Made by a program: the position numbers and the translations under genes. From positions 7,789 through 71,788 of the forward strand of contig JADGPU010000001.1 in NCBI GenBank assembly GCA_017882305.1: a stretch of 64,000 bases of DNA, written 5' to 3'. Under the pieces are notes generated by a model. The model was given only the letters and a program-made list of their open reading frames with translations, was not told the origin of the DNA and searched no databases. This stretch comes from Bacteroidales bacterium (lineage in GTDB: Bacteria > Bacteroidota > Bacteroidia > Bacteroidales > VadinHA17). Shown here one piece after another: positions 2,552 to 45,973 of the stretch (the stretch's first letter is position 1; each line of letters opens with the position of its first letter).

Positions 2552-4492
2552 CTAAAATTTCTTAGCTTCAATACCGAATTTAAAGCCAGCTTTAACCCGC
2601 TCTATCAATTCAGGTATGATATCAGTATATTCACCCACAATACCAAAATCTGCATTATGAAAAATATGCGCTTTAGGATTGTGGTCTATGGCGATAATTT
2701 TTTCAGATTCTTTCATACCGGCTAAGTGTTGAATTGCACCGGAGACTCCAACCGCAACATATACTTTTGGACGGATGGTTTTACCGGTTTGTCCGATTTG
2801 TCTGGCATACTCAACAATACCTTCGTCAACTACGGGACGGCTACAGGCCCATTCAGCATTTATTCCCTGACTTTTTAATGCTTCAGCCAGTGCTTGTATC
2901 AAACCTAGATTATCACTTGTTGTCCCTCGGCCACCCGTAATAATAATATCAGCATCAAAAAGATTCTGTAAACCTCCCTCTCCTCTGACTGTTTTAATAA
3001 TTTCTACCACGAAATCTTTATGCTCAAGTACAGGGTTAAAGCTGGAAACAATGCCTTTCCTCCCCTCAACACGTTGCGGAACTTCAAATGTTCCGGCACG
3101 TGCGGTTGAAATCTGTGGACAAACAAAACCTAGAATTGTAGCCAATTTGCTTTCACCATAAGTTGGACGTCTGGATTCAAGAATTGGAGTATAAATAACT
3201 TTTTCTTTTTTATCTATGTACTCTCCAATTTCAAGCCCTGTACAGTCTGCTGTTACTCCACTATCAGTCTTCATGCCTATCCTGGGAGCTAATTCTCGTC
3301 CTGAGGTAGTTGCAGCAAAAAGAGCAATTTCAGGTTTTCTTTCCTTAATGACTTGTGCAAAAATTGATGAAAACGGAAGAACAAGATATTCCTCAAGCTT
3401 ATCATTTTCAACGAGAATAACCTCATCTGAACCATGTTCAATCAGAGTTTGAGCCAAAGATTGAACATTCTTCCCAATTACCAATGTAAGTACTTTGGTG
3501 TCGTTTCCTAACTGTGTTGCCAGGTCTCTGGCCGGAGTTAAAAGCTCGAGTGAAGGTCTGGAGATTTTACCATTAGTTACTTCAGCCCAGGTAATAATTC
3601 CTTTTGCTCCATTTCTGTAGTCTTTTTCAGGGAAATCCGGACGTTCAATTTCTTTTTTGGCTGTTTTCTCCTTCTTTTCTAAAACATTCCCGCCTTTTTT
3701 TAAGTTAGCGATTAAACTATCGACTAATGAAGCTTCATTATGACCTTCGGACATTGTTATAGGCGGACGTTCACTTACAATATTAACTACTTTTACAACA
3801 ATAGTAGGGGAACCGTTGATACCTATTTTTTCGGTTCCTAAACCAATATCATCAATTCCAAAAGTTGTTATGTTCAAGGTGCGGGCTTTTATGGCACCGC
3901 TTAATGAAGGTTTTCGGGGAGGAATTCCGGTTGGAGTCAATGATATAACACAGGGGATAGGTAACTTCAAAATTTGATATCCCCCTTCTATGATTCTTCT
4001 TGCAATTACATTTCCAGCACCATCAGCTTTTACGCTCTCTACAAAAGTGGCCTGAGGAATTCCGATATTCTCGGCTACTTGTGACGGAACATGTGCAGTA
4101 TCACCATCGCTGGTTTGCCGTCCGGCTAAAATGATAAAGGGGTCTTTAGAATCTTTTGAGAAGCCTAAGTGCTTAAGCATGGTAGAAATTGCCAGGCCGG
4201 TAGCATAAGTATCGCTTCCGCCAAGTTTACGGTCGGATAACAGGTAAGCTTCGTCATAGCCCATTGAAATAGCTGTTCTAAGGGAAGTCTCAAACGATTT
4301 CGGACCCATCGAGCAGACGATTAATCTGGCATCGGGATGTTGTTTCCTGAGCTGCAATCCGGCTTCCAGACCAAACTGACAATCAATATTTATTATTGAT
4401 TTTGCTTTTGTGCGGTCCATTAATCCATCTTCCCCCATTCTCATTTCGCTGGGGAGTGGCACTTGTTTTATTAAACTTATTATTGTTAAAGC
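2552..4492 (-). CDS. Electron transfer flavoprotein, EtfB-EtfA fusion
   Basis: ORF 2552..4615 trimmed to the Met at 4492 (MALTIISLIKQVP), because the upstream part overlaps ETF-QO. The N-half is EtfB-like (GRQTSDGDTAHVPSQVAE), followed by a K/E-rich linker. The C-half is EtfA-like (VAVGVSGAIQHLAGM, HNADFGIVGE). Confidence 0.85.
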   Translation of the reverse strand, partial: ALTIISLIKQVPLPSEMRMGEDGLMDRTKAKSIINIDCQFGLEAGLQLRKQHPDARLIVCSMGPKSFETSLRTAISMGYDEAYLLSDRKLGGSDTYATGLAISTMLKHLGFSKDSKDPFIILAGRQTSDGDTAHVPSQVAENIGIPQATFVESVKADGAGNVIARRIIEGGYQILKLPIPCVISLTPTGIPPRKPSLSGAIKARTLNITTFGIDDIGLGTEKIGINGSPTIVVKVVNIVSERPPITMSEGHNEASLVDSLIANLKKGGNVLEKKEKTAKKEIERPDFPEKDYRNGAKGIITWAEVTNGKISRPSLELLTPARDLATQLGNDTKVLTLVIGKNVQSLAQTLIEHGSDEVILVENDKLEEYLVLPFSSIFAQVIKERKPEIALFAATTSGRELAPRIGMKTDSGVTADCTGLEIGEYIDKKEKVIYTPILESRRPTYGESKLATILGFVCPQISTARAGTFEVPQRVEGRKGIVSSFNPVLEHKDFVVEIIKTVRGEGGLQNLFDADIIITGGRGTTSDNLGLIQALAEALKSQGINAEWACSRPVVDEGIVEYARQIGQTGKTIRPKVYVAVGVSGAIQHLAGMKESEKIIAIDHNPKAHIFHNADFGIVGEYTDIIPELIERVKAGFKFGIEAKKF

Positions 4493-4515
4493 CATTATTA
4501 CCGTATATCTTAATG

Positions 4516-6174
4516 TTACATATTTTGAAAATCCGGGCCATTGCCACCATTTGGTACTACCCAGGTAATACCTTTCCCCGGGGATTTTATATCGCATGTT
4601 TTGCAATGCATACAATTTTCAGCATGAATTCTTAGCTCTTTCTGACCGGCTTTGTTGATATGAAGTTCATATACCTCCGACGAACAATAGAATTGCTCAG
4701 GTGCTCCGTATTGTTCAATGTTAACAGCATCGAAATTTTCCTTGTCGTTAATGTGAAGATGTACAACCTGCTGTTCATCATGGTATACTCCTGAATGGTA
4801 AACATCGGTAGACTTATCGAATGTCAACACTTTGTCGAACTCCAATTTACCTCTAAACCGCTCTTTAAATGGTTTCTTTTTAAATTGACTCAATTTAAGT
4901 GTTGTCTGGTAATCGGCATGAGATCTCAATCTGCCAAAGAAACCTGCTCCACCGGTTATTAATTGAGTCGCAAAATGCAATCCGCCAACAATTAGCCCTT
5001 TTGTGAATCCCTGTCTGAAATTACGAACAGCGTACATTTCTTTGTGAATAGCACTGTTATTTACCAGGGTCTCATATTGCTGAAGGCTTTTTTCTGATGT
5101 GTCGTTGTTTGACAATGCATCGGCAGTGGCTTGTGCAGCTAACATTCCGGATCTGACTGCTAAATGTACACCCTTTAAGGCTGGCATAGCAAGCAATCCT
5201 GCGCTATCTCCAACGATTAAGGCATTGTCGACATATAATTTGGGTACAGCGTAATGGCCTCCTTCGGGAAGGGTCTTGGCTCCGTATTCCACCAATTTAC
5301 CGCCTTTTAAAATTTTAGAAACAAAAGAGGTGGTTTTCCATATCTGGAAAGCGTCATGAACATCGAAAGTCGGATCCTGGTAATCAAGTCCGACAACAAG
5401 ACCAATGGCTACTTTATTATCATTTAAGCCATAAATGAATCCACCTCCAAATTCATCATTATCAAGCGGATAACCCATGGTGTGGTAAACATGGCCAGCC
5501 TTAATATTACCTTCCGGGACTGTCCATATTTCCTTGCAACCTAAAGAGTAAACCTGCTCATTTCTCTCCTTGTCCAGGTTAAATTTTTTAATAAGCATTT
5601 TGGTCAGGCTGCCTCGTGTTCCTTCAGCAAAAATGGTAAGCTTGGCTTCAATCCATGTCCCGGACTGAAAGTTTTCCAACTGGTGTCCATGATGATCCAA
5701 ACCAGTATCTTTGGTTTTGGCGCCTGTTACTTTTCCGTCTTTGTACAAAATCTCATCTACGGCAAAACCGGTATATATCTCTACCCCTTTTTCCTCTGCT
5801 TTTATTGCTAAATACCTGCATATCTGACCCAATGAGGCGGTGTAATTGCCATTATTACTCATGTAGGGCAAATGAAATGGCAGGGAGATGGCTCTTTTTA
5901 CCGTGAGCAAAATCGTTTTGTCTTTAGTTACCTTAGCATTGAATGGAATCTCTGAGAAATCCACATCGGGCAACAATTCTTTAAAAACTGATGGTTTAAT
6001 TATTGCACCTGATAAAATATGACTGCCGATTGCACGACCTTTTTCTATAAGTAATATTCTTTTATTTTGGCCTCTTCGTTTTAAGATATCAGCCAGATGA
6101 ATTGAAGCGGCTAAGCCGGACGGACCACCTCCGATTATTAACACATCCGTTGATACGGTATCAATATAACTCAT
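4516..6174 (-). CDS. Electron transfer flavoprotein-quinone oxidoreductase (ETF-QO)
   Basis: 552 aa. N-terminal DVLIIGGGPSGLAAS FAD fold; C-terminal ferredoxin-like CMHCKTCDIKSP; GDSAG motif. Confidence 0.85.
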   Translation of the reverse strand: MSYIDTVSTDVLIIGGGPSGLAASIHLADILKRRGQNKRILLIEKGRAIGSHILSGAIIKPSVFKELLPDVDFSEIPFNAKVTKDKTILLTVKRAISLPFHLPYMSNNGNYTASLGQICRYLAIKAEEKGVEIYTGFAVDEILYKDGKVTGAKTKDTGLDHHGHQLENFQSGTWIEAKLTIFAEGTRGSLTKMLIKKFNLDKERNEQVYSLGCKEIWTVPEGNIKAGHVYHTMGYPLDNDEFGGGFIYGLNDNKVAIGLVVGLDYQDPTFDVHDAFQIWKTTSFVSKILKGGKLVEYGAKTLPEGGHYAVPKLYVDNALIVGDSAGLLAMPALKGVHLAVRSGMLAAQATADALSNNDTSEKSLQQYETLVNNSAIHKEMYAVRNFRQGFTKGLIVGGLHFATQLITGGAGFFGRLRSHADYQTTLKLSQFKKKPFKERFRGKLEFDKVLTFDKSTDVYHSGVYHDEQQVVHLHINDKENFDAVNIEQYGAPEQFYCSSEVYELHINKAGQKELRIHAENCMHCKTCDIKSPGKGITWVVPNGGNGPDFQNM

Positions 6175-7796: not shown

Positions 7797-7804
7797 CAAA
7801 GGTA
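7797..7804 (-). promoter_or_regulatory. Bacteroidota-type -7 box, TAccTTTG
   Basis: The minus strand reads TACCTTTG about 45 nt upstream of the ATG at 7752. Confidence 0.45.
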
Positions 7805-7819: not shown

Positions 7820-7849
7820 AAAAAAAGAGGCGCTGGATTCAACGTCTCT
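7820..7849 (-). terminator. Intrinsic terminator after the DsrE-like gene
   Basis: The minus strand reads AGAGACG-ttgaatccag-CGCCTCT followed by TTTTTT. The 7-nt stem has one mismatch. Confidence 0.55.
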
Positions 7850-7877
7850 TCTCATTATTAGCATGGAATGGAATTTT

Positions 7878-8375
7878 CTATGTAAAAATTATCTGTGCAC
7901 CTTCTCCACCTGCAAGTTCATAAAACTCACCAACAGTCAGGATCCTGCTGACATGGTCACTAAGATCTTCCTTTTTTAACTTGAACATATCCACAGCAGT
8001 CTTACAGGCATATATCTTACCACCTCCTGCGGTGATCAGATCAAGAAATTCACTCACAGGAGGAATATCAAGTTTTTCCATTTGGCCCTTCATCATCCAT
8101 GAAGTGAATGCTTCCATTCCCGGAATAATACCTAAAAGTGTTGGCATTCTCATACCTCCGGGCAGACGTAACGCAGGGTTGCCTACAACTCCGGTATGTA
8201 GCTTATCCATCCTGTTTTTTGTTATTGCATCCATACCAAAGAATGTGAAGAAAAGGTTTGCTTCAAGTCCTTCCATAACTGCACCATTTCCCAATATCAG
8301 GGTAGCATAAACATCCTCAATTGAGCCTTTGGCGCAAATGAGACTTACTTTTTTTATTGGAAATTTTTGTTCCAT
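7878..8375 (-). CDS. DsrE/DsrF/DrsH-like family protein
   Basis: 165 aa. VSLICAKGSIEDVY and GGKIYACKTAVDMF resemble the DsrE-like sulfur-relay / 'peroxiredoxin family' fold. Confidence 0.7.
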   Translation of the reverse strand: MEQKFPIKKVSLICAKGSIEDVYATLILGNGAVMEGLEANLFFTFFGMDAITKNRMDKLHTGVVGNPALRLPGGMRMPTLLGIIPGMEAFTSWMMKGQMEKLDIPPVSEFLDLITAGGGKIYACKTAVDMFKLKKEDLSDHVSRILTVGEFYELAGGEGAQIIFT

Positions 8376-8396: not shown

Positions 8397-8708
8397 TTAA
8401 ACGCAACTTGCTGGTTTTGGTATCCCGGCTATTTTTGTCGCTTTTTTCAGGGGTGCCCCAGGAAAAAGCTGGTAGAACGTTTTAACATCAATTACTCCTG
8501 AGTGATTAATGCTCCTGATAGATAATGCTTCACCTCCGTTAAATCTGTTACGGAGAAACTCCATGATTGCATAATGCTGTCCTGTAAGAACAATTCCTTC
8601 TTCTTTAGCAATTTCAACTGCAATTTCTTTTGTCCATTGTGAAGGATTTGTAAAATATCCCTCTTCGTTAACATCTACTTTAACGTCTGCGTAAGTTTTT
8701 TGTGCCAT
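8397..8708 (-). CDS. TusE/DsrC/DsvC family sulfur-relay protein (TusE-like, single C-terminal Cys)
   Basis: 103 aa ending GIPKPASCV, the family's penultimate-Cys arm. There is no second Cys about 10 residues upstream. Confidence 0.85.
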   Translation of the reverse strand: MAQKTYADVKVDVNEEGYFTNPSQWTKEIAVEIAKEEGIVLTGQHYAIMEFLRNRFNGGEALSIRSINHSGVIDVKTFYQLFPGAPLKKATKIAGIPKPASCV

Positions 8709-8763: not shown

Positions 8764-9996
8764 TTAATTCTGTATTTTGCCTTTCATCGACATGTAATTT
8801 GTTACCGGAAGTCTTCTTGCTCTCAGGAGTATATTCCAGTATATCCATTTAAATAGTAGTTTTCCGAGGTGATTTAACCTCGACTCTTTTAATAATGAGA
8901 AGGGGCCAATGTAAGGTAAAGGATATAATCCGGGAAGAGGCTCAGTTGCATAATTAAAATCAATAAGGATACCCTTGCCAAAACCTGTCTCAATATAGCA
9001 ATTGGAGTGGCCATCAAAAGAAACAGTCAATGGTCTGTTATTTATGAATTCAATGATGTTTTTCTCAAGCACATCTGCCTGGAAATGAGCAACAGAGCCT
9101 GCTTTTGATGAAGGGAAATTCCCGGCATCTCCGATTACAAAGATATTTTTATACAATACTGACTGGAGGGTATTCTTATCGGCTTTAACAAATCCGAATT
9201 CATCTCCGAGACCACTTTTTGAAATCACGGGGTCGCCTGTATGAAGAGGTATTGAAACCAGACAGTCAAAAGGAACGTCTCTGCCACCGAAATCGAGTAT
9301 TTTTTTATTAGTGTTATCAACCTCACCCAGGAAGAAATCACTTACCAGGTTTATATTTTTCCTGCCAAGAAGAGATCCAAGCTCTTTGGATGCTTTTGGT
9401 TTAGTAAACGCACCTGATAATGGCGTGACATAAGTAATATTCACTTTATCGCGCATACCTTTGCTGGTAAAATAGTAGTCAGAAAGAAAGGCGAACTCCA
9501 ACGGAGCAACAGGGCATTTGATAGGATTATCAGCTATATTAATAACAAGATTTCCTCCCTGCCACGTCTTGAAAAATCCTGCAAGAGCTTCCGCTCCCTC
9601 AATGGTATAAAAATCAAATATGTTTTTCTGCCAAAGCTCTCCTTTTAAACCAGGAGTTTCTTCGGGACTGATTCTTGTTCCGGTAGCGATAATAAGGATA
9701 TCATAACCTATTTCATTACCATTAACAAGAGTTACATTATTCTTTGCTGCATCAATCTTTTCAATCTCACTATTTATTACTTCAACTCCCTTTGGAAAGA
9801 ATTTAAGGGTAGGTTTGAGAATTTCTTTTTTCTGATAATAACCAAAAGGGATAAACAAAAAACCTGGTTGATAATAATGATTCATTTCCTTTTCCACTAC
9901 AGTCACACTCCAATCATTACCTGGCAACTCTTTTCTCATCTTATTTGCCATTATTGTTCCGGCAGTACCAGCACCAAGTATTAAAAGTTTCTTCAT
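8764..9996 (-). CDS. NAD(P)/FAD-dependent oxidoreductase, sulfide:quinone oxidoreductase-like
   Basis: LILGAGTAGT FAD-binding site, IKCPVAPLEFAF, FVIGDAG, and a C-terminal amphipathic tail. Confidence 0.75.
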   Translation of the reverse strand: MKKLLILGAGTAGTIMANKMRKELPGNDWSVTVVEKEMNHYYQPGFLFIPFGYYQKKEILKPTLKFFPKGVEVINSEIEKIDAAKNNVTLVNGNEIGYDILIIATGTRISPEETPGLKGELWQKNIFDFYTIEGAEALAGFFKTWQGGNLVINIADNPIKCPVAPLEFAFLSDYYFTSKGMRDKVNITYVTPLSGAFTKPKASKELGSLLGRKNINLVSDFFLGEVDNTNKKILDFGGRDVPFDCLVSIPLHTGDPVISKSGLGDEFGFVKADKNTLQSVLYKNIFVIGDAGNFPSSKAGSVAHFQADVLEKNIIEFINNRPLTVSFDGHSNCYIETGFGKGILIDFNYATEPLPGLYPLPYIGPFSLLKESRLNHLGKLLFKWIYWNILLRARRLPVTNYMSMKGKIQN

Positions 9997-10008
9997 ATTT
10001 CAGTTGTT

Positions 10009-10026
10009 CTGTTAATTTATTAACAG
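10009..10026. promoter_or_regulatory. Candidate Rex operator, CTGTTAA-TTTA-TTAACAG
   Basis: Perfect 7+7 palindrome with 12/14 match to TTGTTAA-N4-TTAACAA. It lies 13-30 nt upstream of the ATG at 9996. Confidence 0.65.
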
Positions 10027-10028
10027 TA

Positions 10029-10036
10029 CAAATGTA
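10029..10036 (-). promoter_or_regulatory. -7 box, TAcaTTTG
   Basis: The minus strand reads TACATTTG, 2 nt before the Rex-type palindrome. Confidence 0.5.
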
Positions 10037-14815: not shown

Positions 14816-14823
14816 TACCTTTG
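14816..14823 (+). promoter_or_regulatory. -7 box, TAccTTTG
   Basis: TACCTTTG abuts the Rex-type palindrome, 38 nt upstream of the ATG at 14861. Confidence 0.5.
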
Positions 14824-14840
14824 TGTTAATCTTTTAACAA
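14823..14840. promoter_or_regulatory. Candidate Rex operator, GTGTTAA-TCTT-TTAACAA
   Basis: 13/14 half-site match to TTGTTAA-N4-TTAACAA, ending 20 nt upstream of the hdrC-like start. Confidence 0.65.
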
Positions 14841-14860: not shown

Positions 14861-15568
14861 ATGGGAAAACTATACGATTCATTATTAGAAGATGTCAGGT
14901 TTGAAGAAGGACTGAATGCGTGTATGAATTGCGGAGTCTGTACTGCTATTTGTCCGGCTGCTGAGTTTTATAATTACGATCCCAGAAAAATTGTCGATGA
15001 AGTTCAGACGAAGGATGATGATAAAATTACTGAACTTTTAAAGTCTGAAACAATTTGGTATTGCGGTGAATGTATGTCATGCAAGACACGCTGTCCCCGA
15101 GGTAATGCTCCCGGATTGATAATCATGGCATTGCGATCGCTTTCACAGGATCTTGGGTTCTTTACAGAATCCGAAAAAGGAAGACAGCAGCTTGCACTTA
15201 AAAGGACCGTTGGCCATTGGATACTTACTTATGGATACTGTCTATATCTTGAGGGTGTCGGTACATCATTACATCCTGAACAGGGGCCTGTTTGGGACTG
15301 GATTCAGGATAACTGGAGCGACCTGTTTAAAAAAATGGGAGCTAATTATAAAGGGGATGGCCCTGGAATACTCAGGAGAATACCTGAAGAGGCGATGGAT
15401 GAAATCAGGGAAATATTTAAAGTGACCGGCGGAATGAAAAGATTTGAAAATATTGAAAAATTCTCAAAGAAAAAAGCCAAGGAATTAAATATGCAATTGG
15501 ATGAAGGTATTGAGAATGAGTACTTCCGGCATATCTATAAAACTAATAATGGTTCTCATACAAGATAA
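14861..15568 (+). CDS. HdrC-like 4Fe-4S dicluster protein
   Basis: CMNCGVCTAICP and CGECMSCKTRCP, in the helical-ferredoxin arrangement of HdrC. Confidence 0.8.
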   Translation: MGKLYDSLLEDVRFEEGLNACMNCGVCTAICPAAEFYNYDPRKIVDEVQTKDDDKITELLKSETIWYCGECMSCKTRCPRGNAPGLIIMALRSLSQDLGFFTESEKGRQQLALKRTVGHWILTYGYCLYLEGVGTSLHPEQGPVWDWIQDNWSDLFKKMGANYKGDGPGILRRIPEEAMDEIREIFKVTGGMKRFENIEKFSKKKAKELNMQLDEGIENEYFRHIYKTNNGSHTR

Positions 15569-15580
15569 TATTTTCAGAAA

Positions 15581-16642
15581 ATGATACTTGAAGGTAAAAA
15601 AGCCATTTGGAATGATTATCAGAAGGAAATTGCTGACGACAAATATTATTATGTAAGAAGCTGCGTAAGACAAAATTTTTTTCCCGGATCAGAAACAGCC
15701 TTTCTCAAAATAATGCGTGAGGAGCTTAAGAAGGATGTATATGAGCATCCCTGCCATACAACGTGCACAGGAATTGGATATCATGGCGATATTGTTCCTG
15801 TTGAAACTACAATGACTGTTGTTGCACGTCAGTTTGCCATAATGACTGAAGCCGGCTATGAGAACCTTTTACCATCCTGCATTACATCTTTCGGATTATA
15901 TACAGAAATACTGGATACCTGGCATCATTTTCCCGAGGTCGAGGAAAAAGTGAGACGACAACTAAGAAAAGCAACCGGCAGAGAATTCAGGAAACCAAAG
16001 AACCTGGCACATGCAAGTGATGTGATCTATAAATTCAGAAAGGAGATCGCCTCAAAAGCAAAATATAAGCTTGTAAATAAAAATACCGGAGAACCATTGA
16101 AAGTTGTTGATCATATCGGATGTCATTATGCTAAGATGTTCCCTTCCAAAGGAATTGGTGGTGCTGAATATCCTTATGTGCTTGCCGGGATGGTTGAGGA
16201 ATGGGGTGGGAACGTAATTGATTATCCTGAAAGAAGGCACTGCTGCGGATTTGGCTTCAGGCAATACCTTGTACAGGCAAACAGAGGTTTCTCTGTTGCA
16301 TGTTCAAAAGAAAAATTTGAATCGATGAAACCTTTCAAACCAGATATGATAATTACAAACTGTCCGGGTTGCCCAATGTTCCTTGACAGATGGCAATATG
16401 TTATAAATGAGATGGAAGGCAAAAGATATGGCCAGAATGAAGAAGGAATTCCTGTCTTTACATATGAAGAAGTAGCCGGACTTGTTCTTGGCTATGATCC
16501 ATGGGAGTTAGGTCTTCAGATGCATCAGACCGATTGCGAACCAGTTCTGGACAAGATAGGCATTGACTATTCCCCGGAAGATAAATATAATCTTAAAATT
16601 ATTCCATCATATTCAGAAAGTCGCAGTTTAATAAACGTTTGA
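15581..16642 (+). CDS. HdrB-like protein with CCG domains
   Basis: HIGCHYAKMFP, RRHCCGFG and ITNCPGCPMF form a CCG domain. The N-terminal half has a degenerate copy (CHTTCTGIG). Confidence 0.8.
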   Translation: MILEGKKAIWNDYQKEIADDKYYYVRSCVRQNFFPGSETAFLKIMREELKKDVYEHPCHTTCTGIGYHGDIVPVETTMTVVARQFAIMTEAGYENLLPSCITSFGLYTEILDTWHHFPEVEEKVRRQLRKATGREFRKPKNLAHASDVIYKFRKEIASKAKYKLVNKNTGEPLKVVDHIGCHYAKMFPSKGIGGAEYPYVLAGMVEEWGGNVIDYPERRHCCGFGFRQYLVQANRGFSVACSKEKFESMKPFKPDMIITNCPGCPMFLDRWQYVINEMEGKRYGQNEEGIPVFTYEEVAGLVLGYDPWELGLQMHQTDCEPVLDKIGIDYSPEDKYNLKIIPSYSESRSLINV

Positions 16643-16648
16643 TTGTTA

Positions 16649-17677
16649 ATGAGTAAGCATGTTATAGTCATAGGTGGTGGAGTTGCAGGACTTGAAGTTG
16701 CAGGTCAGTTATCTAAAGTCGGAATTGAAGTCAGCCTGATAGAAAAGGAATCAAAAACCGGAGGACACCTGAATAATTGGTATAAACTCTTCCCCGACAG
16801 GAGGAATAGCTCCGAGGTAAAGGAATACCTCAATGGAATTACTGCAAATAATGGAATTAACCTGATGACTGATACAACGATAGAAAAGTTTAACCGGAGC
16901 AGGAGCTGTTTTTCAATTACAACAAATGGAGGAAAAGAGCTGATCGCTGATGCAATTGTTGTAGCTACAGGTTTTGATCTATTTAAAAGCGCCAGGAAAG
17001 AGGAGTATGGTTATGGTATTTATGATAACGTCATTACATCTGCTGATCTTGAGGAGATGTTCAGGAAAGGAGAAATTGTACTAACTGACGGTTCTGTTCC
17101 TGAATCGATTGGAATCATACACTGTGTTGGCTCAAGAGATGAGAAAGTCGGCAATTATTATTGCTCAAAATTATGCTGTGTCACTGCAGTTAAGCAAGCT
17201 ATAGAGTTAAGAGAACATCTTCCTGAATCGAAAGTCTTTTGTTACTATATGGATATGAGGATGGGTGGAGCCTTTTATGAAGAGCTTTATCGGGAAGCTC
17301 AGGAAAAATGGGGTGTTAACTTCATAAGAGGCAAAGTATCTGAGGCAAGCGAGACAATCGAAAAAAAACTCATGGTAAAGGTCGAGGATACTCTTGCAGG
17401 GAGACCACTTAAAATGAATCTCGATATGCTGGTTTTAATGGCAGGCATGGAAATGTCAGCAGGTGGGGAAAAAGTTGCCGGTATGAGTGGCCTTAAAACA
17501 GGCGAAAACAGGTTTTTTGCTGCAGCCGATAATCATTTTGGCAGCAACAAAAGTAATATCGAAGGGATATTCTATGCAGGTACATGCACTGCGCCAATGA
17601 ATATTACCGAAACAATTTCACATGCACGGGCAGCTTTTACCGAGGTAATGGAATGGCTTAGAAATGGTAAAAGATAA
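16649..17677 (+). CDS. HdrA-like FAD-dependent oxidoreductase (short form)
   Basis: VIVIGGGVAGLE, and CVGSRDEKVGNYYCSKLCC, the HdrA CxGSRD...CSxxCC cluster motif. About 340 aa, lacking the ferredoxin and MvhD-type domains. Confidence 0.8.
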   Translation: MSKHVIVIGGGVAGLEVAGQLSKVGIEVSLIEKESKTGGHLNNWYKLFPDRRNSSEVKEYLNGITANNGINLMTDTTIEKFNRSRSCFSITTNGGKELIADAIVVATGFDLFKSARKEEYGYGIYDNVITSADLEEMFRKGEIVLTDGSVPESIGIIHCVGSRDEKVGNYYCSKLCCVTAVKQAIELREHLPESKVFCYYMDMRMGGAFYEELYREAQEKWGVNFIRGKVSEASETIEKKLMVKVEDTLAGRPLKMNLDMLVLMAGMEMSAGGEKVAGMSGLKTGENRFFAAADNHFGSNKSNIEGIFYAGTCTAPMNITETISHARAAFTEVMEWLRNGKR

Positions 17678-18023
17678 TATGGAAAAATTCGGATTTACCA
17701 TATCAAAAGGACGGCAGATCGACTATGAGTCCAATAACCGGAGAATAGCCGAGTACATTTTTGAGAATGAACCCAGCTTCAGACTATGCTTTGAATGTGG
17801 CGGTTGCTCGGCGACTTGTACTACCGCTAATTTTACAGGTTTTAGTCTTCGGGAACTTAATATACTGATTAAACGTGGCGAAAATGATCAGGTACGCAGT
17901 ACTTTAAAAAAATGCATGCTCTGTGGTAAATGTACCCTGGTTTGTCCACGAGGAGTCAATACCAGAAATATAGTGGTTCTGGCAAAACAAGCCTTTCAAA
18001 AATCGGATGAATATGAAATTTGA
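17664..18023 (+). CDS. Small HdrC2-like 4Fe-4S dicluster protein
   Basis: CFECGGCSATC and CMLCGKCTLVCP. The start overlaps the hdrA-like stop by 14 nt. Confidence 0.75.
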   Translation: MVKDNMEKFGFTISKGRQIDYESNNRRIAEYIFENEPSFRLCFECGGCSATCTTANFTGFSLRELNILIKRGENDQVRSTLKKCMLCGKCTLVCPRGVNTRNIVVLAKQAFQKSDEYEI

Positions 18024-19911
18024 TCCTTTCATAATACCATTTAATATTGGATTATACTTCATACTCATATATGTTGTATCAAGAAGTGTAATATGGTTCC
18101 GCGACCTCTCACGACCGGATAAGCTGAGGCTGCAACGTGGGTTCTTTGGTATAGCCTTTGGCCTGAGCCTTAAAGAAATATTTATGGAGAGTTTGATACA
18201 CAGGAAGATATTTAAAACAAATATCCGCCTGGGTTATATGCATATGAGCCTGGCTTTCGGCTGGTTTTTACTTATATTATTTGGCACAATTGAAGCTGAT
18301 ATTTTTAGCGCGAAACACCTTAATGCTCCTTATAAAGCTATCTTTTTCAGGTTCTTCAATCCCGATCATGGCAGGATGGGATTTGAGGCAGCTTATGGAT
18401 TTTTAATGGATCTGATACTTGCATTTATTCTGTCAGGATTATTGGTGGCTGTTTTGAAAAGGTTTTATTCGAAAATTGTCGGTATGAAGAAGACTACCCG
18501 TCTGAAGATGTCCGACAGAATTGCCCTTACTTCACTATGGCTTATCTTCCCCAGCCGTCTCCTAGCTGAAAGTTTCACGTGTGGCGCTTATGGTACCGGC
18601 AGTTTTCTTACCGGATCACTTGGAGCCTGGTTTGCAACATTCCTTCCGGCCCAACAGATGGCCTATCCTTTCTGGTGGCTTTATTCCATCTCTTTGGGAA
18701 CTTTTTTCGTTCTTTTACCGATAACAAGGTATATGCACATACCCACTGAACTATTCCTTATTTTTATGAGAAATTCAGGAATAAAAACCGGCGACAAGAC
18801 AGGTACATATTCAGAGGTTCAAACTTACTCCTGCTCTTCATGCGGAATATGCATTGATGCATGTCAGCTTAATTTTTCAGCAGGTATTACCAATATTCAG
18901 TCAGCTTACCTAATGAAGGCTATTCGTAATAACGATGACGTTTCTGAAATCGCTGATAACTGCCTGATGTGTGGCAGGTGCGATCAGAAATGTCCCGTGG
19001 GAATAGAACTTTCTCCAATCAGGATGATCCAAAGAAGGGCAGGTGAAGCTGAAAATGATTTCAGGAACATTTATAAAGGTTATTTCAGGAGCCGGCAGCC
19101 TATTATTTCAGAAAAAGCCATTGGTTCTTCAAATTATTCTTTCCTTCATGAAACAGATCCGGAAAAAGCTGACATTTTGTATTTTGCAGGTTGTATGACC
19201 CACCTGACTCCAACTATTAAAAATTCCATGATAAAAATTCTCGATGCCTCAGGAGTGAAATACAATTTTATTGATGAGCAGGGAGGTGTCTGTTGTGGAC
19301 GTCCGTTAATGCTTGCAGGACAGGATAAGGAAGCCAGGGAACTTATTAATTATAATTCGCAGATGATCTGGAAATCGGGCGCTCACACACTAATAACATC
19401 GTGTCCAATATGTTATAAAGTTTTTAAGGAGAGCTATTATCTTGATGTTGAGGTGCTTCATCACACACAATTTATTAAGATGCTCATCGATGAAGGATCT
19501 GTGAAATTGAATTTCTTACGCAATAAAGTTGTCTATCATTCTCCTTGCGATCTTGGAAGAGGATCAGGTGTCTATGATGAACCAAAAGAGGTTCTGAATC
19601 ATGTTTCTCGCCTTCAGAAAAGCAATTTCGAAGATGGAAATTCCCTTTGTTGTGGAGGAAGTCTTGCTAACATGAAAATAAGTTCTCAGAAGAAAAAGAA
19701 AATAGCTCTCGAAGCCGCTATAGAACTGACCAAAGATAACCCCGATATCCTTGCAACCGCCTGTCCTCTTTGTAAAAAGACTTTCTCAGCTGTTACAGAA
19801 ACAAGAGTCGCAGATATTTCAGAGATTGTGGCCGAAGCTTTAATTGAGAAACCCGTGAAAAAAAATAACATCAGCAATGTCAAATCAATAAGAGAGTTGG
19901 CAAATATTTGA
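18007..19911 (+). CDS. Membrane cytochrome-b-like (NarI/HdrE/DsrM-type) domain fused to an HdrD-like Fe-S/CCG protein
   Basis: The N-terminal ~260 aa have 5-6 helices with His in YMHMS and RYMHIP. These are followed by CSSCGICIDACQ and CLMCGRCDQKCP, then two CCG domains (GGVCCGRP/ITSCPICYK and LCCGGS/TACPLCKK). Confidence 0.8.
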   Translation: MNMKFDPFIIPFNIGLYFILIYVVSRSVIWFRDLSRPDKLRLQRGFFGIAFGLSLKEIFMESLIHRKIFKTNIRLGYMHMSLAFGWFLLILFGTIEADIFSAKHLNAPYKAIFFRFFNPDHGRMGFEAAYGFLMDLILAFILSGLLVAVLKRFYSKIVGMKKTTRLKMSDRIALTSLWLIFPSRLLAESFTCGAYGTGSFLTGSLGAWFATFLPAQQMAYPFWWLYSISLGTFFVLLPITRYMHIPTELFLIFMRNSGIKTGDKTGTYSEVQTYSCSSCGICIDACQLNFSAGITNIQSAYLMKAIRNNDDVSEIADNCLMCGRCDQKCPVGIELSPIRMIQRRAGEAENDFRNIYKGYFRSRQPIISEKAIGSSNYSFLHETDPEKADILYFAGCMTHLTPTIKNSMIKILDASGVKYNFIDEQGGVCCGRPLMLAGQDKEARELINYNSQMIWKSGAHTLITSCPICYKVFKESYYLDVEVLHHTQFIKMLIDEGSVKLNFLRNKVVYHSPCDLGRGSGVYDEPKEVLNHVSRLQKSNFEDGNSLCCGGSLANMKISSQKKKKIALEAAIELTKDNPDILATACPLCKKTFSAVTETRVADISEIVAEALIEKPVKKNNISNVKSIRELANI

Positions 19912-33495: not shown

Positions 33496-35220
33496 ATGAA
33501 GACTGAGGAAAAAACACAAGCAGAACTCCTAAAAGAGCTCAGAGATTTGCAGCAAAAATATAATTCAATGAAAGTATTATATGAGAAAAAGATCAATGGA
33601 CTCAAACAGGCAGAAGAAGCTCTGGCCAAAGAACAATTCCTGATTAACGCCCTGATGAATAATCTTACTGATCATGTTTATTTCAAAGACCTGGAAAGCA
33701 GGTTTATCAGAAATAACAGAGCTCATGCACTTTCGTTCGGATTAGTTGATCCTGAACAGGTAATTGGCAAATCAGATTTTGATTTTTTTACTGAACAGGC
33801 TGCACGTCAGGCATTTGAGGATGAACAGACAATTATCAGAACCGGACAACCAATTCAAAAGGAAGAGAAACTTACCCGGAAGGATCATTCTGATGCCTGG
33901 TTTTCTGCAATAAAAATGCCTCTTCGAGATAACGATGGGACTATCATAGGTACTTTCGGGATATCCAGAGACATAACGGACCGTAAGCGAAGTGAGTTGG
34001 AAAGTCACGCTTTATTTGAGATTACAGAAGGGATTACTTCAACCGATAATCTTGACGAATTACTCAAATTGATCCATCACTCACTGGGGAAAGTTGTTTA
34101 TGCAGAGAATTGCTTCGTCGCTCTTTATAATCAAAAATCCGGTCTCTTCAGCTTCCCGTATTTTGTTGACCAGGTTGATACAACTCCTTTTCCGACATCT
34201 ATGGGCAAAAGTTGTTCAGCCTATGTCATTCGGACTGTTAAACCACTTCTTTTGACACAACAAACATTCGACATGCTCGTCGAACAAAATGAAGTAGAAT
34301 TAATTGGCTCAAATTCACCCTCGTGGATAGGGATTCCGTTACAAGCGCCTTCAAGAGTAATCGGAGTATTGGTTCTGCAACATTATGAAAAAGAAAATGT
34401 TTATTCGGAAAACGATGTAAAGTTTCTGGTTTCAATTGGAAGTCAGATTGCAATTTCTATTGAGCGAAAAATGTCGGAGGAAGAAATAAAGATGAAAAAT
34501 GAGCTTCTTCAGGCTATAAATGCAGAGAAAGATAAATTCTTTTCAATTATTGCTCACGACCTCCGGGGACCATTAAGTGCATTTGTTGCTGCTACCCAGA
34601 TAATTACCGAGGAAATTCAGACTATGAGCATTGAGGAGATACGGGATATTACTGACAGCATGAAGACGTCTGCTACAAACATCTACAGTCTTCTCGAAAA
34701 CCTGCTTGAATGGTCACGACTGAAACGCGGTGGAATGGATTTCATTCCCGAAAAGATTAATCTGAAGAAGAATATTGATGAATGTATAGATATTCTTTCA
34801 GAATCTGCAAGAAAAAAGGGAATTGAAATAGAGGTTACTATTCCGGATAAATTGGAAGTTATCGCTGACAATCATATGTTTGAAGCAATTATCCGAAACC
34901 TGGTTTCAAATGCAATAAAATTTAGTGCTAACAGAGGAAAAGTTTATGTGACTGCTGGTTATAATAATGAACATTTAATTGAAATTAAAATCAGTGATTC
35001 CGGTATTGGAATGGCAGCTGAATTGAAAAACAAGCTATTCCAGATAGATGAAAAGACCAGCAGACCTGGTACGGAAGGTGAACCGAGTACCGGGCTCGGA
35101 TTATTGTTATGTAAAGAATTCATTGAAAAGCATGGTGGAAGAATTTGGGTGGAGAGCGAGGTTGGGAAAGGAAGTACTTTCGCATTTTCAATCCAGCAAT
35201 TTGAAAATCTGAAGAACTGA
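33496..35220 (+). CDS. PAS/GAF sensor histidine kinase
   Basis: PAS ending SRDITDRK, a GAF-like middle, H-box FFSIIAHDLRGPL, and an ATPase domain (DSGIGM, GLGLLLCKEF). Confidence 0.85.
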   Translation: MKTEEKTQAELLKELRDLQQKYNSMKVLYEKKINGLKQAEEALAKEQFLINALMNNLTDHVYFKDLESRFIRNNRAHALSFGLVDPEQVIGKSDFDFFTEQAARQAFEDEQTIIRTGQPIQKEEKLTRKDHSDAWFSAIKMPLRDNDGTIIGTFGISRDITDRKRSELESHALFEITEGITSTDNLDELLKLIHHSLGKVVYAENCFVALYNQKSGLFSFPYFVDQVDTTPFPTSMGKSCSAYVIRTVKPLLLTQQTFDMLVEQNEVELIGSNSPSWIGIPLQAPSRVIGVLVLQHYEKENVYSENDVKFLVSIGSQIAISIERKMSEEEIKMKNELLQAINAEKDKFFSIIAHDLRGPLSAFVAATQIITEEIQTMSIEEIRDITDSMKTSATNIYSLLENLLEWSRLKRGGMDFIPEKINLKKNIDECIDILSESARKKGIEIEVTIPDKLEVIADNHMFEAIIRNLVSNAIKFSANRGKVYVTAGYNNEHLIEIKISDSGIGMAAELKNKLFQIDEKTSRPGTEGEPSTGLGLLLCKEFIEKHGGRIWVESEVGKGSTFAFSIQQFENLKN

Positions 35221-35287
35221 TAATTCTGAAGTAAAACTTTGCAAATAATTTTTACAGTGGACCGGAACCTTGTTAAAAGTAAGAAAT

Positions 35288-37339
35288 ATGCAAAAAATTA
35301 TTGAAATTCAGTTTTCCGACTTATTCGATTTAAAGGATATCCAACATATTCAGGACCTCTTTGCAGATGCTACAGGTGTTGCATCAATAATAACACATCC
35401 AGATGGTACCCCAATAACCCGGCCAAGTAATTTCTGCAGATTATGCAATGAAATAATCAGAAAAACAGAAGTTGGACTTACAAATTGCTTCAAATCTGAT
35501 GCTGAAATTGGACGACCTAATCCTTCAGGTCCAGTTGTACAACCATGTCTGAGTGGTGGTTTATGGGATGCAGGTTCAAGTATTATTGTCGGGGGTAAAC
35601 ATATTGCCAACTGGTTAATCGGTCAGGTAAAAAATGAAGAACTGGATCTTAAGCAAATGCTTCTGTATTCTGAAGAGATTGGAGCTGATCAGGAAACTTT
35701 TATGAGTGCTCTGAAAGAGGTGCCGGTAATGTCAAAAGAAAAGTTTGAAAAAGTGGCTAAAATGTTATTTTCCTTTGCCAGCGAATTATCCATAAAAGCC
35801 TATCAGAATATTTTGCTTAAACAATCAATAGATGACCGTGATCGTGCTGAAAAAAAGTTGACTTTTGAACAATATCTGATTACCAGTCTATTGGATAACC
35901 TTCCGGACCATGTCTATTTTAAAGACCGGGAAAGCCGTTTCATCAGGGTCAATAAGGCTATGGCTCAATTCCTTGGTTTAAATGATCCTGACCAGGCTAT
36001 TGGAAAGACAGACTTTGACTTTTTTACCGGAGAACATGCACAGCAGGCATATGAAGATGAACAGAATATAATCAGGACCAGGCAACTGTTGAGTATTGAA
36101 GAGAAGGAGACATATCCCGATCGTTCCGACACCAGGGTTTCAACTATTAAAATGCCTTTGCAGGATAAAGATGGAAATATCATAGGTACATTCGGAATCT
36201 CAAGAGACATCACCAATGCGAAGCTGGCGGAAGAGGAGATAATGAAAAGTGAAATCTTAAACCGGACTTTAATCAAGCACCTTCCGCAGCGAATTTTTAT
36301 TAAAGACCTTGATTCAAAATATATATTATGCAACGACATTTATTCAAGGGATTTAGGAATAAATCCGAAAGAGATTGTCGGTAAAGACGACTTTGCTTTT
36401 TTCTCCCGTGAATTAGCCGAAAAATATCGCAGAGACGATCAAGAGGTTATATCGGATGGGATTCAAAAAGAATTTGAAGAAAAATATTCGATTTCAGGCC
36501 GGGAGCGATGGACACATGTTAATAAAGTTCCATATCGTGATACGAATGATCAGATTGTGGGAGTACTAGGCATATTTGAAGACATCACCGAGCGTAAAGT
36601 AGTGGAAGAAGAAATTAAACATAAGAATGAACTGCTCCAGGCAATGAATGCGGAAAAAGACAAATTCTTTTCAATAATTTCACATGACCTGCGTAGCCCT
36701 TTAAGTGCATTTGTTGCAGCTACACAGATACTTGCCACTGAAATTCAGACAATGAATATTGAAGAGATCAGAGAAATTACTCAGAGTATGAAGTCATCAG
36801 CAACAAATATCTATACCCTGCTTGAAAACCTTCTAGAATGGTCACGTCTGAGACGGGGTGGGATGGATTTTGTTCCTGAAAAACTTAATCTAAAAGAAAA
36901 AATCGATGATTGTATTGATGTTCTTTCTGAATCCGCAAGGAAAAAAGAGATTCAAATAAATGTTTCCATTCCTGGTGAAGTTGAAATTTGGGCTGATAAC
37001 CATATGTTCGATGCTGTAGTCCGGAATCTGGTTTCTAATGCAATAAAATTTACCCATGTTGGCGGCAAAGTCACTGTGGAAGCTTTTTACAAAAATGACC
37101 GTCTGGTGGAAGTGAAAGTCACCGATTCAGGTATCGGAATAACCCCCGAATTGAAAGATAAACTGTTTCTTCTGAGTGAGAAGACCAGTCGTCCGGGTAC
37201 AGAAGGTGAATCCAGTACCGGACTAGGATTATTGTTATGTAAAGAATTCATTGAAAAGAATGATGGTAAAATATGGGTGGAAAGCGAGGTTGGAAAGGGA
37301 AGTACTTTTAGTTTTACAATAAGAGGAAAGAGCAAATAG
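35288..37339 (+). CDS. PocR-like/PAS sensor histidine kinase (paralog of 33496..35220)
   Basis: Cys-rich N-terminal sensor (FCRLCNE, CFKSD, QPCLSGG), two PAS domains, H-box FFSIISHDLRSPL, and an ATPase domain. ATG at 35288. Confidence 0.85.
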   Translation: MQKIIEIQFSDLFDLKDIQHIQDLFADATGVASIITHPDGTPITRPSNFCRLCNEIIRKTEVGLTNCFKSDAEIGRPNPSGPVVQPCLSGGLWDAGSSIIVGGKHIANWLIGQVKNEELDLKQMLLYSEEIGADQETFMSALKEVPVMSKEKFEKVAKMLFSFASELSIKAYQNILLKQSIDDRDRAEKKLTFEQYLITSLLDNLPDHVYFKDRESRFIRVNKAMAQFLGLNDPDQAIGKTDFDFFTGEHAQQAYEDEQNIIRTRQLLSIEEKETYPDRSDTRVSTIKMPLQDKDGNIIGTFGISRDITNAKLAEEEIMKSEILNRTLIKHLPQRIFIKDLDSKYILCNDIYSRDLGINPKEIVGKDDFAFFSRELAEKYRRDDQEVISDGIQKEFEEKYSISGRERWTHVNKVPYRDTNDQIVGVLGIFEDITERKVVEEEIKHKNELLQAMNAEKDKFFSIISHDLRSPLSAFVAATQILATEIQTMNIEEIREITQSMKSSATNIYTLLENLLEWSRLRRGGMDFVPEKLNLKEKIDDCIDVLSESARKKEIQINVSIPGEVEIWADNHMFDAVVRNLVSNAIKFTHVGGKVTVEAFYKNDRLVEVKVTDSGIGITPELKDKLFLLSEKTSRPGTEGESSTGLGLLLCKEFIEKNDGKIWVESEVGKGSTFSFTIRGKSK

Positions 37340-37372
37340 TAAAAAGTACGGAGCAAGGTGTGAGGAGTAAAA
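37338..37372. repeat. 7-nt-period array (5 units)
   Basis: agtaaaa agtacgg agcaagg tgtgagg agtaaaa. Confidence 0.6.
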
Positions 37373-37400
37373 AAATATTCATCATTTAAACCCTTATAAA

Positions 37401-38159
37401 ATGATTCAAAAGAATCTCCTGAAAATCCTTTTTGTAGAGTATCTACCTTCAGATGTCGATCTGGCTGTTCTGGAATTGCGGAAGGAGAAAATAGAATTTG
37501 AATATATTACCGTTTGTACCAGGATTGATATGGTATCAGCACTTAAGAAATTCAATCCCGATCTGATTATTTCTGATTATATGATGCCTTCATTTAATGG
37601 CTTGCTGGCTCTGAAAGAAGCAAAGGAATTCAACTCTGAAATTCCATTTATTCTTTATACCGGATCAGTTAATGAAGAGACGGCCGTTGCATGTCTTAAA
37701 GCAGGAGCACAGGATTATATTATCAAAGAACACATGACAAGATTACCTTATGCGGTAAAGGAGGCGGTGGAACAGGTAAGGAGAAATAAGGAAAAAAGAG
37801 CTTCAGAACTACTTTTAAAGGAAAACGAGGAAAAACTTCAGAGCATTTTCAGTGTTGCTCCGGTGGGTATAGGACTTGTGGTTGACAGGGTTCTTATAGA
37901 AGTGAATGATACTTTCTGCAATATGACCGGATATACCAGAAGAGAATTAATTGGGAAATCTTCTGAGATTATATATTCATCAAGGGAAGAATATATAAAA
38001 GCCGGGGAAGAGAAATACAGGCAGATAAAAAAAAAAGGAACAGGGTCTGTTGAGACATCTTTTAAGTGCAAAGACGGTAAGCTTCTAAATGTTTTACTAA
38101 GTTCAGCACCTCTTGATAAAAATGATCATTCAAAAGGAGTAACTATTTACAGTTCTTGA
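37401..38159 (+). CDS. Response-regulator receiver + PAS; 5' fragment of a frameshifted hybrid kinase
   Basis: REC domain (LIISDYMMPSFNG) followed by a PAS domain. The ORF stops at 38157-38159 inside what should be the PAS-terminal DITxRK motif. Confidence 0.8.
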   Translation: MIQKNLLKILFVEYLPSDVDLAVLELRKEKIEFEYITVCTRIDMVSALKKFNPDLIISDYMMPSFNGLLALKEAKEFNSEIPFILYTGSVNEETAVACLKAGAQDYIIKEHMTRLPYAVKEAVEQVRRNKEKRASELLLKENEEKLQSIFSVAPVGIGLVVDRVLIEVNDTFCNMTGYTRRELIGKSSEIIYSSREEYIKAGEEKYRQIKKKGTGSVETSFKCKDGKLLNVLLSSAPLDKNDHSKGVTIYSS

Positions 38160-42717: not shown

Positions 42718-43458
42718 ATGGAACATAAGCTGAATGCTTTAATCGTTGATGATGAAGAGAATGCCAGATTATTACTTAATACGTTATTAGAGGAAACTTT
42801 TTTATTCAACGATATCAGATTAGCTCAGTCAGTCGACGCTGCTTACACTGAGATGAACCGTTTTGAACCGGATATTATCTTTCTCGATATTAAAATGCCC
42901 GGGAAAGACGGTTTTGCATTCATTCAGGATCTGCCTCATGGATACAAATTACAGAAAATTGTTTTTGTGACAGCCTATGATCAGTATGCTATTAAAGCAA
43001 TTAAAAACCAGGCCTTTGATTATCTTCTTAAACCGGTTAACCGCAAGGAATTAGAACAATGTTTATCAAGGTTTATTGAGAAGAAAAACGAAGAAACTGA
43101 TATTGAACGTACTGTAAAAATTATTGAAGCACATGATCGTATAACCAGGATAAGGGTCAATACCCGGACCGGAACATTATTTATTAATCCTTCTGATATA
43201 TTATTCTGTAAAGCTGAAGGTAATTATACAACAGTATGTACAGGTAAGAAACATCATCTCTGTTCAATGAACCTTGGAAGGGTGGCGGAATTGCTTCCCA
43301 AGAATGGGTTTGTAAGAGTGGGGCGGTCATACATTGTTAATTTTGAGTATATTACGATGTTAGATCGCAAGGAATGCACAATCATACTTGTGAGAGACGG
43401 GGAGTCAGTGACAGTTAAAATACCCAGACAGCATCTGAAGGATCTTGATATTATATAA
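42718..43458 (+). CDS. LytR/AlgR-family response regulator (REC + LytTR)
   Basis: REC domain (IFLDIKMPGKDG) and a C-terminal LytTR domain (ILFCKAEGNYT, RVGRSYIVN). Confidence 0.9.
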   Translation: MEHKLNALIVDDEENARLLLNTLLEETFLFNDIRLAQSVDAAYTEMNRFEPDIIFLDIKMPGKDGFAFIQDLPHGYKLQKIVFVTAYDQYAIKAIKNQAFDYLLKPVNRKELEQCLSRFIEKKNEETDIERTVKIIEAHDRITRIRVNTRTGTLFINPSDILFCKAEGNYTTVCTGKKHHLCSMNLGRVAELLPKNGFVRVGRSYIVNFEYITMLDRKECTIILVRDGESVTVKIPRQHLKDLDII

Positions 43459-43461
43459 ACA

Positions 43462-45556: not shown

Positions 45557-45973
45557 TTATAAATATTTCCTGTCTTCCTCGGGTATGTCAAAATATTTAT
45601 TATAGGTTTTAACATCAGGACCACTCTTTTCTTCTATTTTATTTCCCCTGATCTTATAAGTACACTTTTCTCCTGCAATACCTGAAAAATAAATGTTGTA
45701 CTCTTTTCCATCGTCATCAATCATTATAATCCTTACCAGATGATTGTACTTGGCACTGTTTAATTGTGAGTGACAGATAGGACACGTATAAATATATTCT
45801 TCACCTTCTTTTATATGGAAAGAAGGATGTGTTGTGGTTGTGTAGTTCCCGATCTCAGGATTCAAAAAAATCAATCCTCTTGCAGGACTGTTGGTTTTTG
45901 AGGCAGCAAGTACAATTGAAGTTTTAACTTTGAGATGTCCCCTGCATACTTTACAAAGATATTCTACAGCCAT
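45557..45973 (-). CDS. Hypothetical CxxC...CxxC protein, last gene of the hydrogenase operon
   Basis: 138-aa ORF with CKVCRGH and CPICHSQ about 60 residues apart. Its start overlaps the protease gene by 23 nt. Confidence 0.6.
   Translation of the reverse strand: MAVEYLCKVCRGHLKVKTSIVLAASKTNSPARGLIFLNPEIGNYTTTTHPSFHIKEGEEYIYTCPICHSQLNSAKYNHLVRIIMIDDDGKEYNIYFSGIAGEKCTYKIRGNKIEEKSGPDVKTYNKYFDIPEEDRKYL

Follow-up and report, generated by a model that had tools for sequence, protein, structure and literature searches.

A predicted Rex-type operator over the start of a type III sulfide:quinone oxidoreductase operon in a Bacteroidales genome

The window analysed here, a stretch of 64,000 nt of Bacteroidales DNA, carries directly in front of a three-gene sulfur-handling operon a short palindrome that is probably an operator placed over the transcription start and bound by a winged-helix repressor acting as a dimer, for which the product of the rex gene at 59024-59707 is the most likely candidate. 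We infer Rex as the binder, as well as the direction of the regulation and the NADH signal. Both the motif and the Rex family are already known; the host phylum and the predicted targets, namely the type III sulfide:quinone oxidoreductase (SQR), TusE, DsrE and Hdr-like genes, appear to be new for Rex in the literature that we searched. Searches on Rex in Bacteroidetes or Bacteroides and on the TTGTTAA motif returned no characterisation of a Rex regulon for Bacteroidota. The promoter contains the following features.

10009 to 10026, no strand: operator palindrome with the arms CTGTTAA and TTAACAG around TTTA, a predicted Rex box over the start of the SQR operon (sequence; weight-matrix score of 28.9, the best in the window; orthologous promoters).
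10029 to 10036, minus strand: Bacteroidetes -7 box TACATTTG, consensus TAnnTTTG (sequence; nearly invariant in alignment A1 of 22 orthologous promoters; consensus from PMC7366714).
10065 to 10078, minus strand: second kept upstream element ATCATAAATATCAT, about 30-45 nt 5' of the -7 box (invariant or nearly invariant columns in the 22 orthologous promoters).

The letters of 10009-10026 are CTGTTAATTTATTAACAG. The two arms are fully complementary and the TTTA spacer is asymmetric. Each arm agrees with TTGTTAA at six of seven positions, which gives 12/14 in total, and the initial annotation, which had described a 7+7 palindrome with a 12/14 match to TTGTTAA-N4-TTAACAA, was correct in both the letters and the arm counts. 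The plus-strand CAAATGTA at 10029-10036 is TACATTTG on the minus strand, and 10027-10028 are the only bases between it and the palindrome, in agreement with the minus-strand TAcaTTTG box that had been placed 2 nt away. Towards the gene, 12 nt (9997-10008) separate the palindrome from the ATG (9996-9994) of a 410-aa minus-strand ORF. The closeness to this ATG had also been recognized, and only the figure of 13 nt needs amending, as it was an offset count.

The primary sigma factor of Bacteroidetes uses TAnnTTTG as its -7 box (PMC7366714), and the promoter carrying the palindrome is, as judged from its sequence, of the sigma-ABfr type. A start 5-7 nt past the -7 box would lie within the left arm of the palindrome and would give a leader of about 26-28 nt; the modal 5' UTR of B. 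thetaiotaomicron is 23 nt (PMC7366714). A sigma-70 promoter scan of the window (39 matches, 35.5 expected) was uninformative, the host promoters being of the TAnnTTTG type. The second upstream element, ATCATAAATATCAT, has a single exact match within the window and is missing at the Hdr-like and hydrogenase promoters. A further regulator may bind it, or it may form part of the divergent promoter of the gene at 10183.

Palindromy alone is no evidence of function, because perfect 7+7/N4 inverted repeats occur in the window at the chance rate (7, with 6.75 expected from Markov shuffles). The specific sequence, on the other hand, recurs far above expectation: TGTTAA-N4-TTAACA with at most one mismatch is found at three sites against 0.38 expected, and none of 100 shuffles reached three. 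These T-type sites, at 10010, 14824 and 58910, are all intergenic and located in promoter regions, those of the SQR operon and of an Hdr-like operon and the intergenic region between a hydrogenase operon and rex. A weight matrix trained on orthologous sites of other genomes only scored them at 28.9, 20.7 and 17.2, with the next best site at 7.3, and shuffled sequence gave 0.24 matches of at least 12 per window. The weight-matrix scan that the initial annotation had proposed as a check thus sets the three sites clearly apart. The more permissive motif TGTKAA-N4-TTMACA has eight sites in the window against 1.07 expected.

The operator is also conserved. Homologues of the SQR at 72-87% identity belong to uncultured Bacteroidales from fens, peat and sediments. 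The same palindrome stands directly after a -7 box, with 5-17 nt left to the SQR ATG, in about 21 species-level genomes whose SQR is at least 72% identical; orthologous SQR genes thus show the upstream conservation on which the original proposal had been made to depend. In 80 SQR loci comprising 968 kb, we found 44 matches with at most one mismatch, nearly all at two orthologous places, 5-17 nt before the SQR ATG and 16-26 nt before the hdrC1-like ATG. Alignment A1 is invariant at the half-sites, at a single T within the -7 box and in the upstream element ATCATAAnTATCAT; the spacer varies (TAAA, TTAA, TTTA, TAAT or AAAA) and the leader drifts. TGTTAA is the sequence of 40 of the 44 SQR half-sites, and the outermost base of the palindrome is C, G or A, as compared to T in the TTGT consensus. 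A second Bacteroidales clade, with SQR at about 65% identity, lacks the proximal site and has a site about 80-90 nt upstream of the ATG. One locus labelled as a Chloroflexota MAG (L012) shows Bacteroidales-like synteny, the -7 box, the T-type palindrome and 75% SQR identity, and this contig is probably mis-binned.

Two simpler accounts of the inverted repeat can be set against these data. That it is a functionless AT-rich repeat arisen by chance would fit the chance rate of perfect repeats, but the recurrence of the specific sequence, the gap in the weight-matrix scores and the conservation in about 21 species-level genomes with drifting flanks rule this out, and we give it a negligible probability. 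The repeat could instead form a hairpin in the 5' leader of the SQR mRNA and influence how stable the message is or how it is translated. The fully transcribed leader does fold, with 7 bp of the palindrome and 3 flanking bp (-7.4 kcal/mol, z = -3.5). However, all four asymmetric orthologous sites carry uncompensated changes and none of the 22 sites shows a compensatory double change; the bases are conserved, and not the pairing alone. Furthermore, an unrelated promoter has the same sequence, equally placed with respect to its -7 box, and a start 5-7 nt past this box would probably lie inside the left arm. The RNA hairpin was rejected on the uncompensated changes and the base conservation, and we consider it very improbable.

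The genes behind the operator and the elements that delimit them are the following.

8764 to 9996, minus strand: type III sulfide:quinone oxidoreductase of 410 aa, first gene (NCBIfam NF049943; Pfam Pyr_redox_2).
8397 to 8708, minus strand: TusE/DsrC-family sulfur carrier of 103 aa (TIGR03342 at 75 bits, cutoff 53.5; Pfam DsrC; translation).
7878 to 8375, minus strand: DsrE-family (DsrE2-like) sulfur transferase of 165 aa, last gene (Pfam DrsE_2 at 87 bits).
7820 to 7853, minus strand: intrinsic-terminator-like hairpin and U-run (fold; terminator scan).
7797 to 7804, minus strand: separate -7 box TACCTTTG for the next gene (sequence).

The SQR matches NF049943 over residues 2-407 with 613.1 bits (cutoff 525), which identifies it as a type III SQR. 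The matched family is designated a 'selenoprotein subtype'; the ORF has no in-frame stop, and therefore no in-frame UGA (Sec) codon. The TusE/DsrC-family protein ends in KIAGIPKPASCV (PASCV) and has the penultimate cysteine only, in place of the two cysteines of DsrC sensu stricto; because of this single C-terminal cysteine we call it TusE-like. The DsrE-like protein scores 96.8 bits against the DsrE2 equivalog NF047629, below the cutoff of 210, and is therefore named DsrE-family or DsrE2-like. The family matches to NF049943, TIGR03342 and Pfam DrsE_2 agree with the SQR-like, TusE and DsrE assignments made initially from the letters.

The terminator-like hairpin begins 25 nt past the stop codon of the DsrE-like gene at 7878. 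On the minus strand it folds at 7853-7822 (centroid energy -13.7 kcal/mol, z = -2.66), with a U-run directly behind the fold. The initial report of a T-run hairpin at 7820-7849 is thus confirmed. The next gene is cysteine-desulfurase-like, and its true start is taken as the ATG at 7752 because the orthologue is called as 501 aa. Across 80 loci from many phyla, SQR, TusE and DsrE are kept together and the genes downstream vary. The three-gene unit that had been proposed is well supported, because of the terminator hairpin, the separate promoter and start of the next gene, and this synteny. An extended operon was considered and rejected: the cysteine-desulfurase-like, ETF-QO-like and EtfBA genes fall outside the predicted unit, and the weight matrix found no T-type motif upstream of them. 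In many of the more distant loci (L018, L020, L022-L031 and L033-L039), an extra gene occupies the roughly 700 nt between SQR and the TusE-like gene; the window is without it.

The second T-type site belongs to an Hdr-like operon on the opposite strand.

14824 to 14839, no strand: second predicted T-type operator TGTTAATCTTTTAACA (weight-matrix score of 20.7; orthologous loci).
14861 to 19911, plus strand: Hdr-like operon encoding HdrC1-like, HdrB1-like and HdrA-like proteins, a small ferredoxin and a fused HdrC/B-like protein (Pfam, NCBIfam).

TGTTAATCTTTTAACA adjoins the -7 box TACCTTTG at 14816-14823 and is located 21 nt upstream of the hdrC1-like ATG at 14861. The palindrome abuts the -7 box in nine of the 12 loci that have the hdrC1-like gene, and the other three have degenerate versions. 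In the type II sHdr system, shdrC1B1AHB3-etfAB-emo with LbpA, the core genes are clustered with etfAB, and a lipoate-binding protein accompanies them (PMC11094781). The gene order at 14861-19911 (HdrC1, HdrB1, HdrA, ferredoxin, fused C-B) together with the fused EtfBA and the ETF-QO-like protein at 2552-6174 resembles this set. As compared to it, the Hdr-like and Etf groups are here about 8.7 kb apart, with the SQR cassette and unrelated genes between them, and no LbpA was seen among the scanned ORFs of at least 100 aa (about 50 of 71 in the window). EtfB and EtfA are fused in one minus-strand ORF of 687 aa (2552-4615; the ETF-QO-like gene is at 4516-6174). The real start of EtfBA is probably later than listed, since translation from the listed TTG would begin about 100 nt inside the upstream ETF-QO-like gene.

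The candidate regulator is encoded beside the hydrogenase genes.

59024 to 59707, plus strand: rex, redox-sensing repressor of 227 aa (NF003996; PF06971 and PF02629).
45557 to 58831, minus strand: group-4 (Mbh/Mrp-like) [NiFe]-hydrogenase operon (Pfam).
58840 to 58855, no strand: G-type palindrome TGTGAGAAGTTTCACA with the arms TGTGAG and TTCACA around AAGT (68 of 77 related rex loci).
58910 to 58925, no strand: T-type site with one mismatch, TGTTTAAATATTAACA, in the hydrogenase/rex intergenic region (weight-matrix score of 17.2).
59023 to 59038, no strand: G-type palindrome TGTGAAACAAATCACA over the GTG start codon of rex, a candidate autoregulatory site (76 of 77 loci).

The rex product scores 205.8 bits against NCBIfam NF003996 (cutoff 138) and aligns to solved Rex structures with E = 5e-35, with the Q-V-R-K recognition helix and the GMGNMG motif present; it thus has the winged-helix domain, the base-reading Arg/Lys pair and the Rossmann GxGxxG of a Rex protein. 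The homologue search with rex gave at least 120 matches, and all of those listed were at least 89% identical. The gene diverges from the Mbh/Mrp-type [NiFe]-hydrogenase operon, with hypF and hypD as its downstream neighbours. The first genes of the hydrogenase operon (57009-58831, minus strand) encode a Fer4_22 iron-sulfur protein and a FAD/NAD-binding flavoprotein, similar to sulfhydrogenase beta and gamma subunits or to AsrAB, which hints at an NAD(P)H-linked membrane hydrogenase. Also encoded within this operon, at 56496-56951 on the minus strand, is a protein of 151 aa with nothing but a cyclic-nucleotide-binding domain; it lacks a helix-turn-helix and is kept in a relative (L161).

The minus-strand sequence of the hydrogenase promoter is TAATTTTA-tc-TGTGAAACTTCTCACA, and a further 8 nt lead to the ATG. 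The layout of a -7 box, 0-2 nt and a palindrome is thus common to the SQR, Hdr-like and hydrogenase promoters. Of 77 related rex loci, 68 have TGTGA[G/T]-N4-TTCACA directly before the hydrogenase ATG and 76 have TGTGAA-N4-nTCACA over the rex start codon; neither box is T-type in any of them. The third positions of rex codons 1-6 are 94-100% identical among 66 unique sequences, as compared to a mean of roughly 0.65 (0.45-0.98) in later codons, and it is this strong conservation that suggests an autoregulatory operator within the coding start. Conservation of the T-type site at 58910 is limited to a subclade, in which G/T hybrids such as TGTGAATATATTAACA are frequent. The initial annotation had proposed a site shared with the Hdr-like and hydrogenase operons; this stands for the Hdr-like operon, and for the hydrogenase operon it applies mainly through the G-type variant. 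Upstream of the hydrogenase region, one related rex locus carries two further classical boxes that are near-perfect, TTGTGAAATATATCACAA and ATGTGAAATATCTCACAA (L136:2865-2885 and 3169-3189).

The SQR palindrome corresponds to a known form of Rex operator. TTGTTAANNNNTTAACAA is the Clostridiaceae-type Rex consensus, as attributed to Ravcheev et al. (2012) in two later papers (PMC5367854, PMC8457756), and in C. thermocellum it has been confirmed by DAP-seq and EMSA. In T. saccharolyticum, the 16-mer core TGTTAATAAATTAACA (gene strand) is predicted upstream of adhE and hfs, and a Rex site is also predicted at asrABC, so that links between Rex and sulfur genes are not unprecedented. The classical Rex box is TTGTGAANNNNTTCACAA (S. 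coelicolor, S. aureus, B. subtilis and C. bescii; PMC2883068, PMC6391272), and the rex gene and hydrogenase operon of C. bescii are EMSA-verified Rex targets. With a rex gene in the window and a match to TTGTTAANNNNTTAACAA, the designation of the palindrome as Rex-type, made at the outset, is supported. Against the general operator form of 16-18 bp, TTGTKAA-N4-TTMACAA with an AT-rich 4-nt spacer, the palindrome agrees at 12 of 14 positions, and sites of this form are also present at rex and the hydrogenase operon (58840, 58910 and 59023), mostly as the G-type.

The palindrome shares with the Clostridiaceae-type operator the TGTTAA half-site core, the AT-rich 4-nt spacer and the location in the promoter of a redox operon. 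It differs in the Bacteroidales host, the putative sigma-ABfr-type promoter, the outermost base (C instead of T) and the predicted target, which is a sulfur-handling operon and not fermentation genes. With the classical box it has in common the geometry, the G at position 3 and the A at position 6. The G-type hydrogenase and rex boxes match this classical form, whereas position 4 of TGTKAA is T and not G at the SQR and Hdr-like promoters. G/T swaps at this position recur at orthologous sites, namely the SQR sites of L006, L010, L059 and L020, the hdr site of L016, L024 as compared to L023, and the -115 site upstream of rex. These swaps indicate that the binder tolerates both the T- and the G-form, and they give a lineage motif, TGTKAA-N4-TTMACA, that spans both published forms of the Rex consensus. 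In the structure of T. maritima Rex bound to DNA, the conserved G is recognised by Arg48, and both the variable G and the next A by Lys49; the window Rex shares this Q-x-R-K helix. Comparison of the recognition helix with solved Rex proteins gave no prediction of a preference for G or T.

Across about 25 genomes, the SQR or Hdr cluster is not accompanied by any syntenic regulator gene, and within the window a LytTR response regulator is the one other DNA-binding protein that we found. The search for a local dedicated regulator gave, as neighbours of the cluster, a CHAD-domain protein, an M1 peptidase, DUF3795 and DUF3788 proteins and a secreted protein, and such a regulator was rejected. The lack of a dedicated regulator nearby favours a global one. 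Between the sulfur island and the hydrogenase operon lies a sensor kinase cluster, with PAS/GAF/PocR sensor histidine kinases and response regulators and then a LytTR two-component pair (33496-40473 and 42718-45546).

The main competitor to Rex is that the operator is real and belongs to a different dimeric regulator encoded elsewhere, for example one responsive to sulfur or sulfide, with Rex acting on the G-type boxes only. That protein would control only the SQR-TusE-DsrE2 and Hdr-like operons. The two types of site are almost segregated by locus: the two best-kept sites of the rex locus are always TGTGA-type and, as described above, in none of the 77 loci T-type, in contrast to the 40 of 44 SQR half-sites that read TGTTAA, and outside one subclade the T-type site near rex is not kept. 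Since the site types are so strongly bimodal, two proteins of related specificities could yield this pattern. Moreover, known sqr and shdr operons elsewhere are under dedicated persulfide-sensing repressors, such as SqrR, CstR and sHdrR. Other dedicated regulators of such genes are BigR and FisR, and in Hyphomicrobium SoxR beside sHdrR. Such persulfide- or sulfide-responsive regulators are usually encoded beside their targets and sense sulfane sulfur directly. The predicted targets here are likewise sulfur genes of the sqr and sHdr type, but, as compared to the SqrR/CstR-type systems, there is no adjacent regulator gene and the operator is Rex-like, which would imply control by NADH/NAD+ rather than by sulfur species.

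Several observations speak against a second protein. The position-4 swaps at orthologous sites show that both forms are tolerated, a T-type or hybrid site is present in the rex upstream region itself, no regulator gene travels with the cluster in the approximately 25 genomes, and 6-7-nt arms around an AT-rich 4-nt spacer are the exact geometry of a Rex box. We therefore regard a different regulator as a serious though rather unlikely candidate. A Crp/Fnr-type protein deserves mention as well: the G-type sites at 58840 and 59023 fit the CRP/FNR box (TGTGA-N6-TCACA) exactly, whereas the T-type SQR site, with TGTTA in place of TGTGA, does not. The window contains no Crp/Fnr-family protein with a helix-turn-helix, only the 151-aa cyclic-nucleotide-binding-domain protein described above.

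With Rex as the binder, the arrangement suggests simple repression. The palindrome begins 2 nt past the -7 box and would span roughly -3 to +15 of the SQR-TusE-DsrE2 promoter, the start being placed by its distance from this box, so that RNA polymerase would be blocked by a Rex dimer on the site. If it behaves like the Rex proteins characterised elsewhere, Rex would occupy the DNA at a low NADH/NAD+ ratio, and a rise in NADH would release it and de-repress the operon. The Hdr-like operon, with the same T-type box in the same position, and the hydrogenase operon and rex, with their G-type boxes, would then be co-regulated with the sulfur relay.

A single NADH-sensing Rex regulon that joins the SQR-TusE-DsrE2 relay, the type-II-sHdr-like complex and the Mbh-type hydrogenase in these anaerobic peat and wetland Bacteroidales is a more speculative proposal, which we hold to be unlikely on the present evidence. 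If it were true, the 'sulfur oxidation' genes would serve redox balancing and would be set by the redox state and not by a sulfur sensor. Sulfur or persulfide might then act as an electron sink alongside H2, or sulfide might raise NADH and thereby trigger its own detoxification indirectly. Apart from this proposal, the conserved Rex-type operator at both the SQR-TusE-DsrE2 and the Hdr-like operon raises the hypothesis that peatland Bacteroidales, which are abundant, may switch cytoplasmic sulfur handling by NADH/NAD+ together with hydrogen production, and such control would bear on cryptic sulfur cycling in wetlands and on fermentative redox balance. For the reconstruction of Bacteroidales regulons, TGTKAA-N4-TTMACA directly past a -7 box offers a usable motif.

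A similar arrangement was seen in a distant genome. An Acidimicrobiia MAG (L064:6940-7000), an actinobacterial genome with a GC content as high as 66%, has an AT-rich classical Rex-like box, TGTGAACTAGATCACA, and a second similar box about 40-55 nt before its SQR orthologue. These boxes may represent independent Rex- or CRP-type control of the SQR cassette, and the first of them hints that a link between Rex and this cassette may have arisen more than once.
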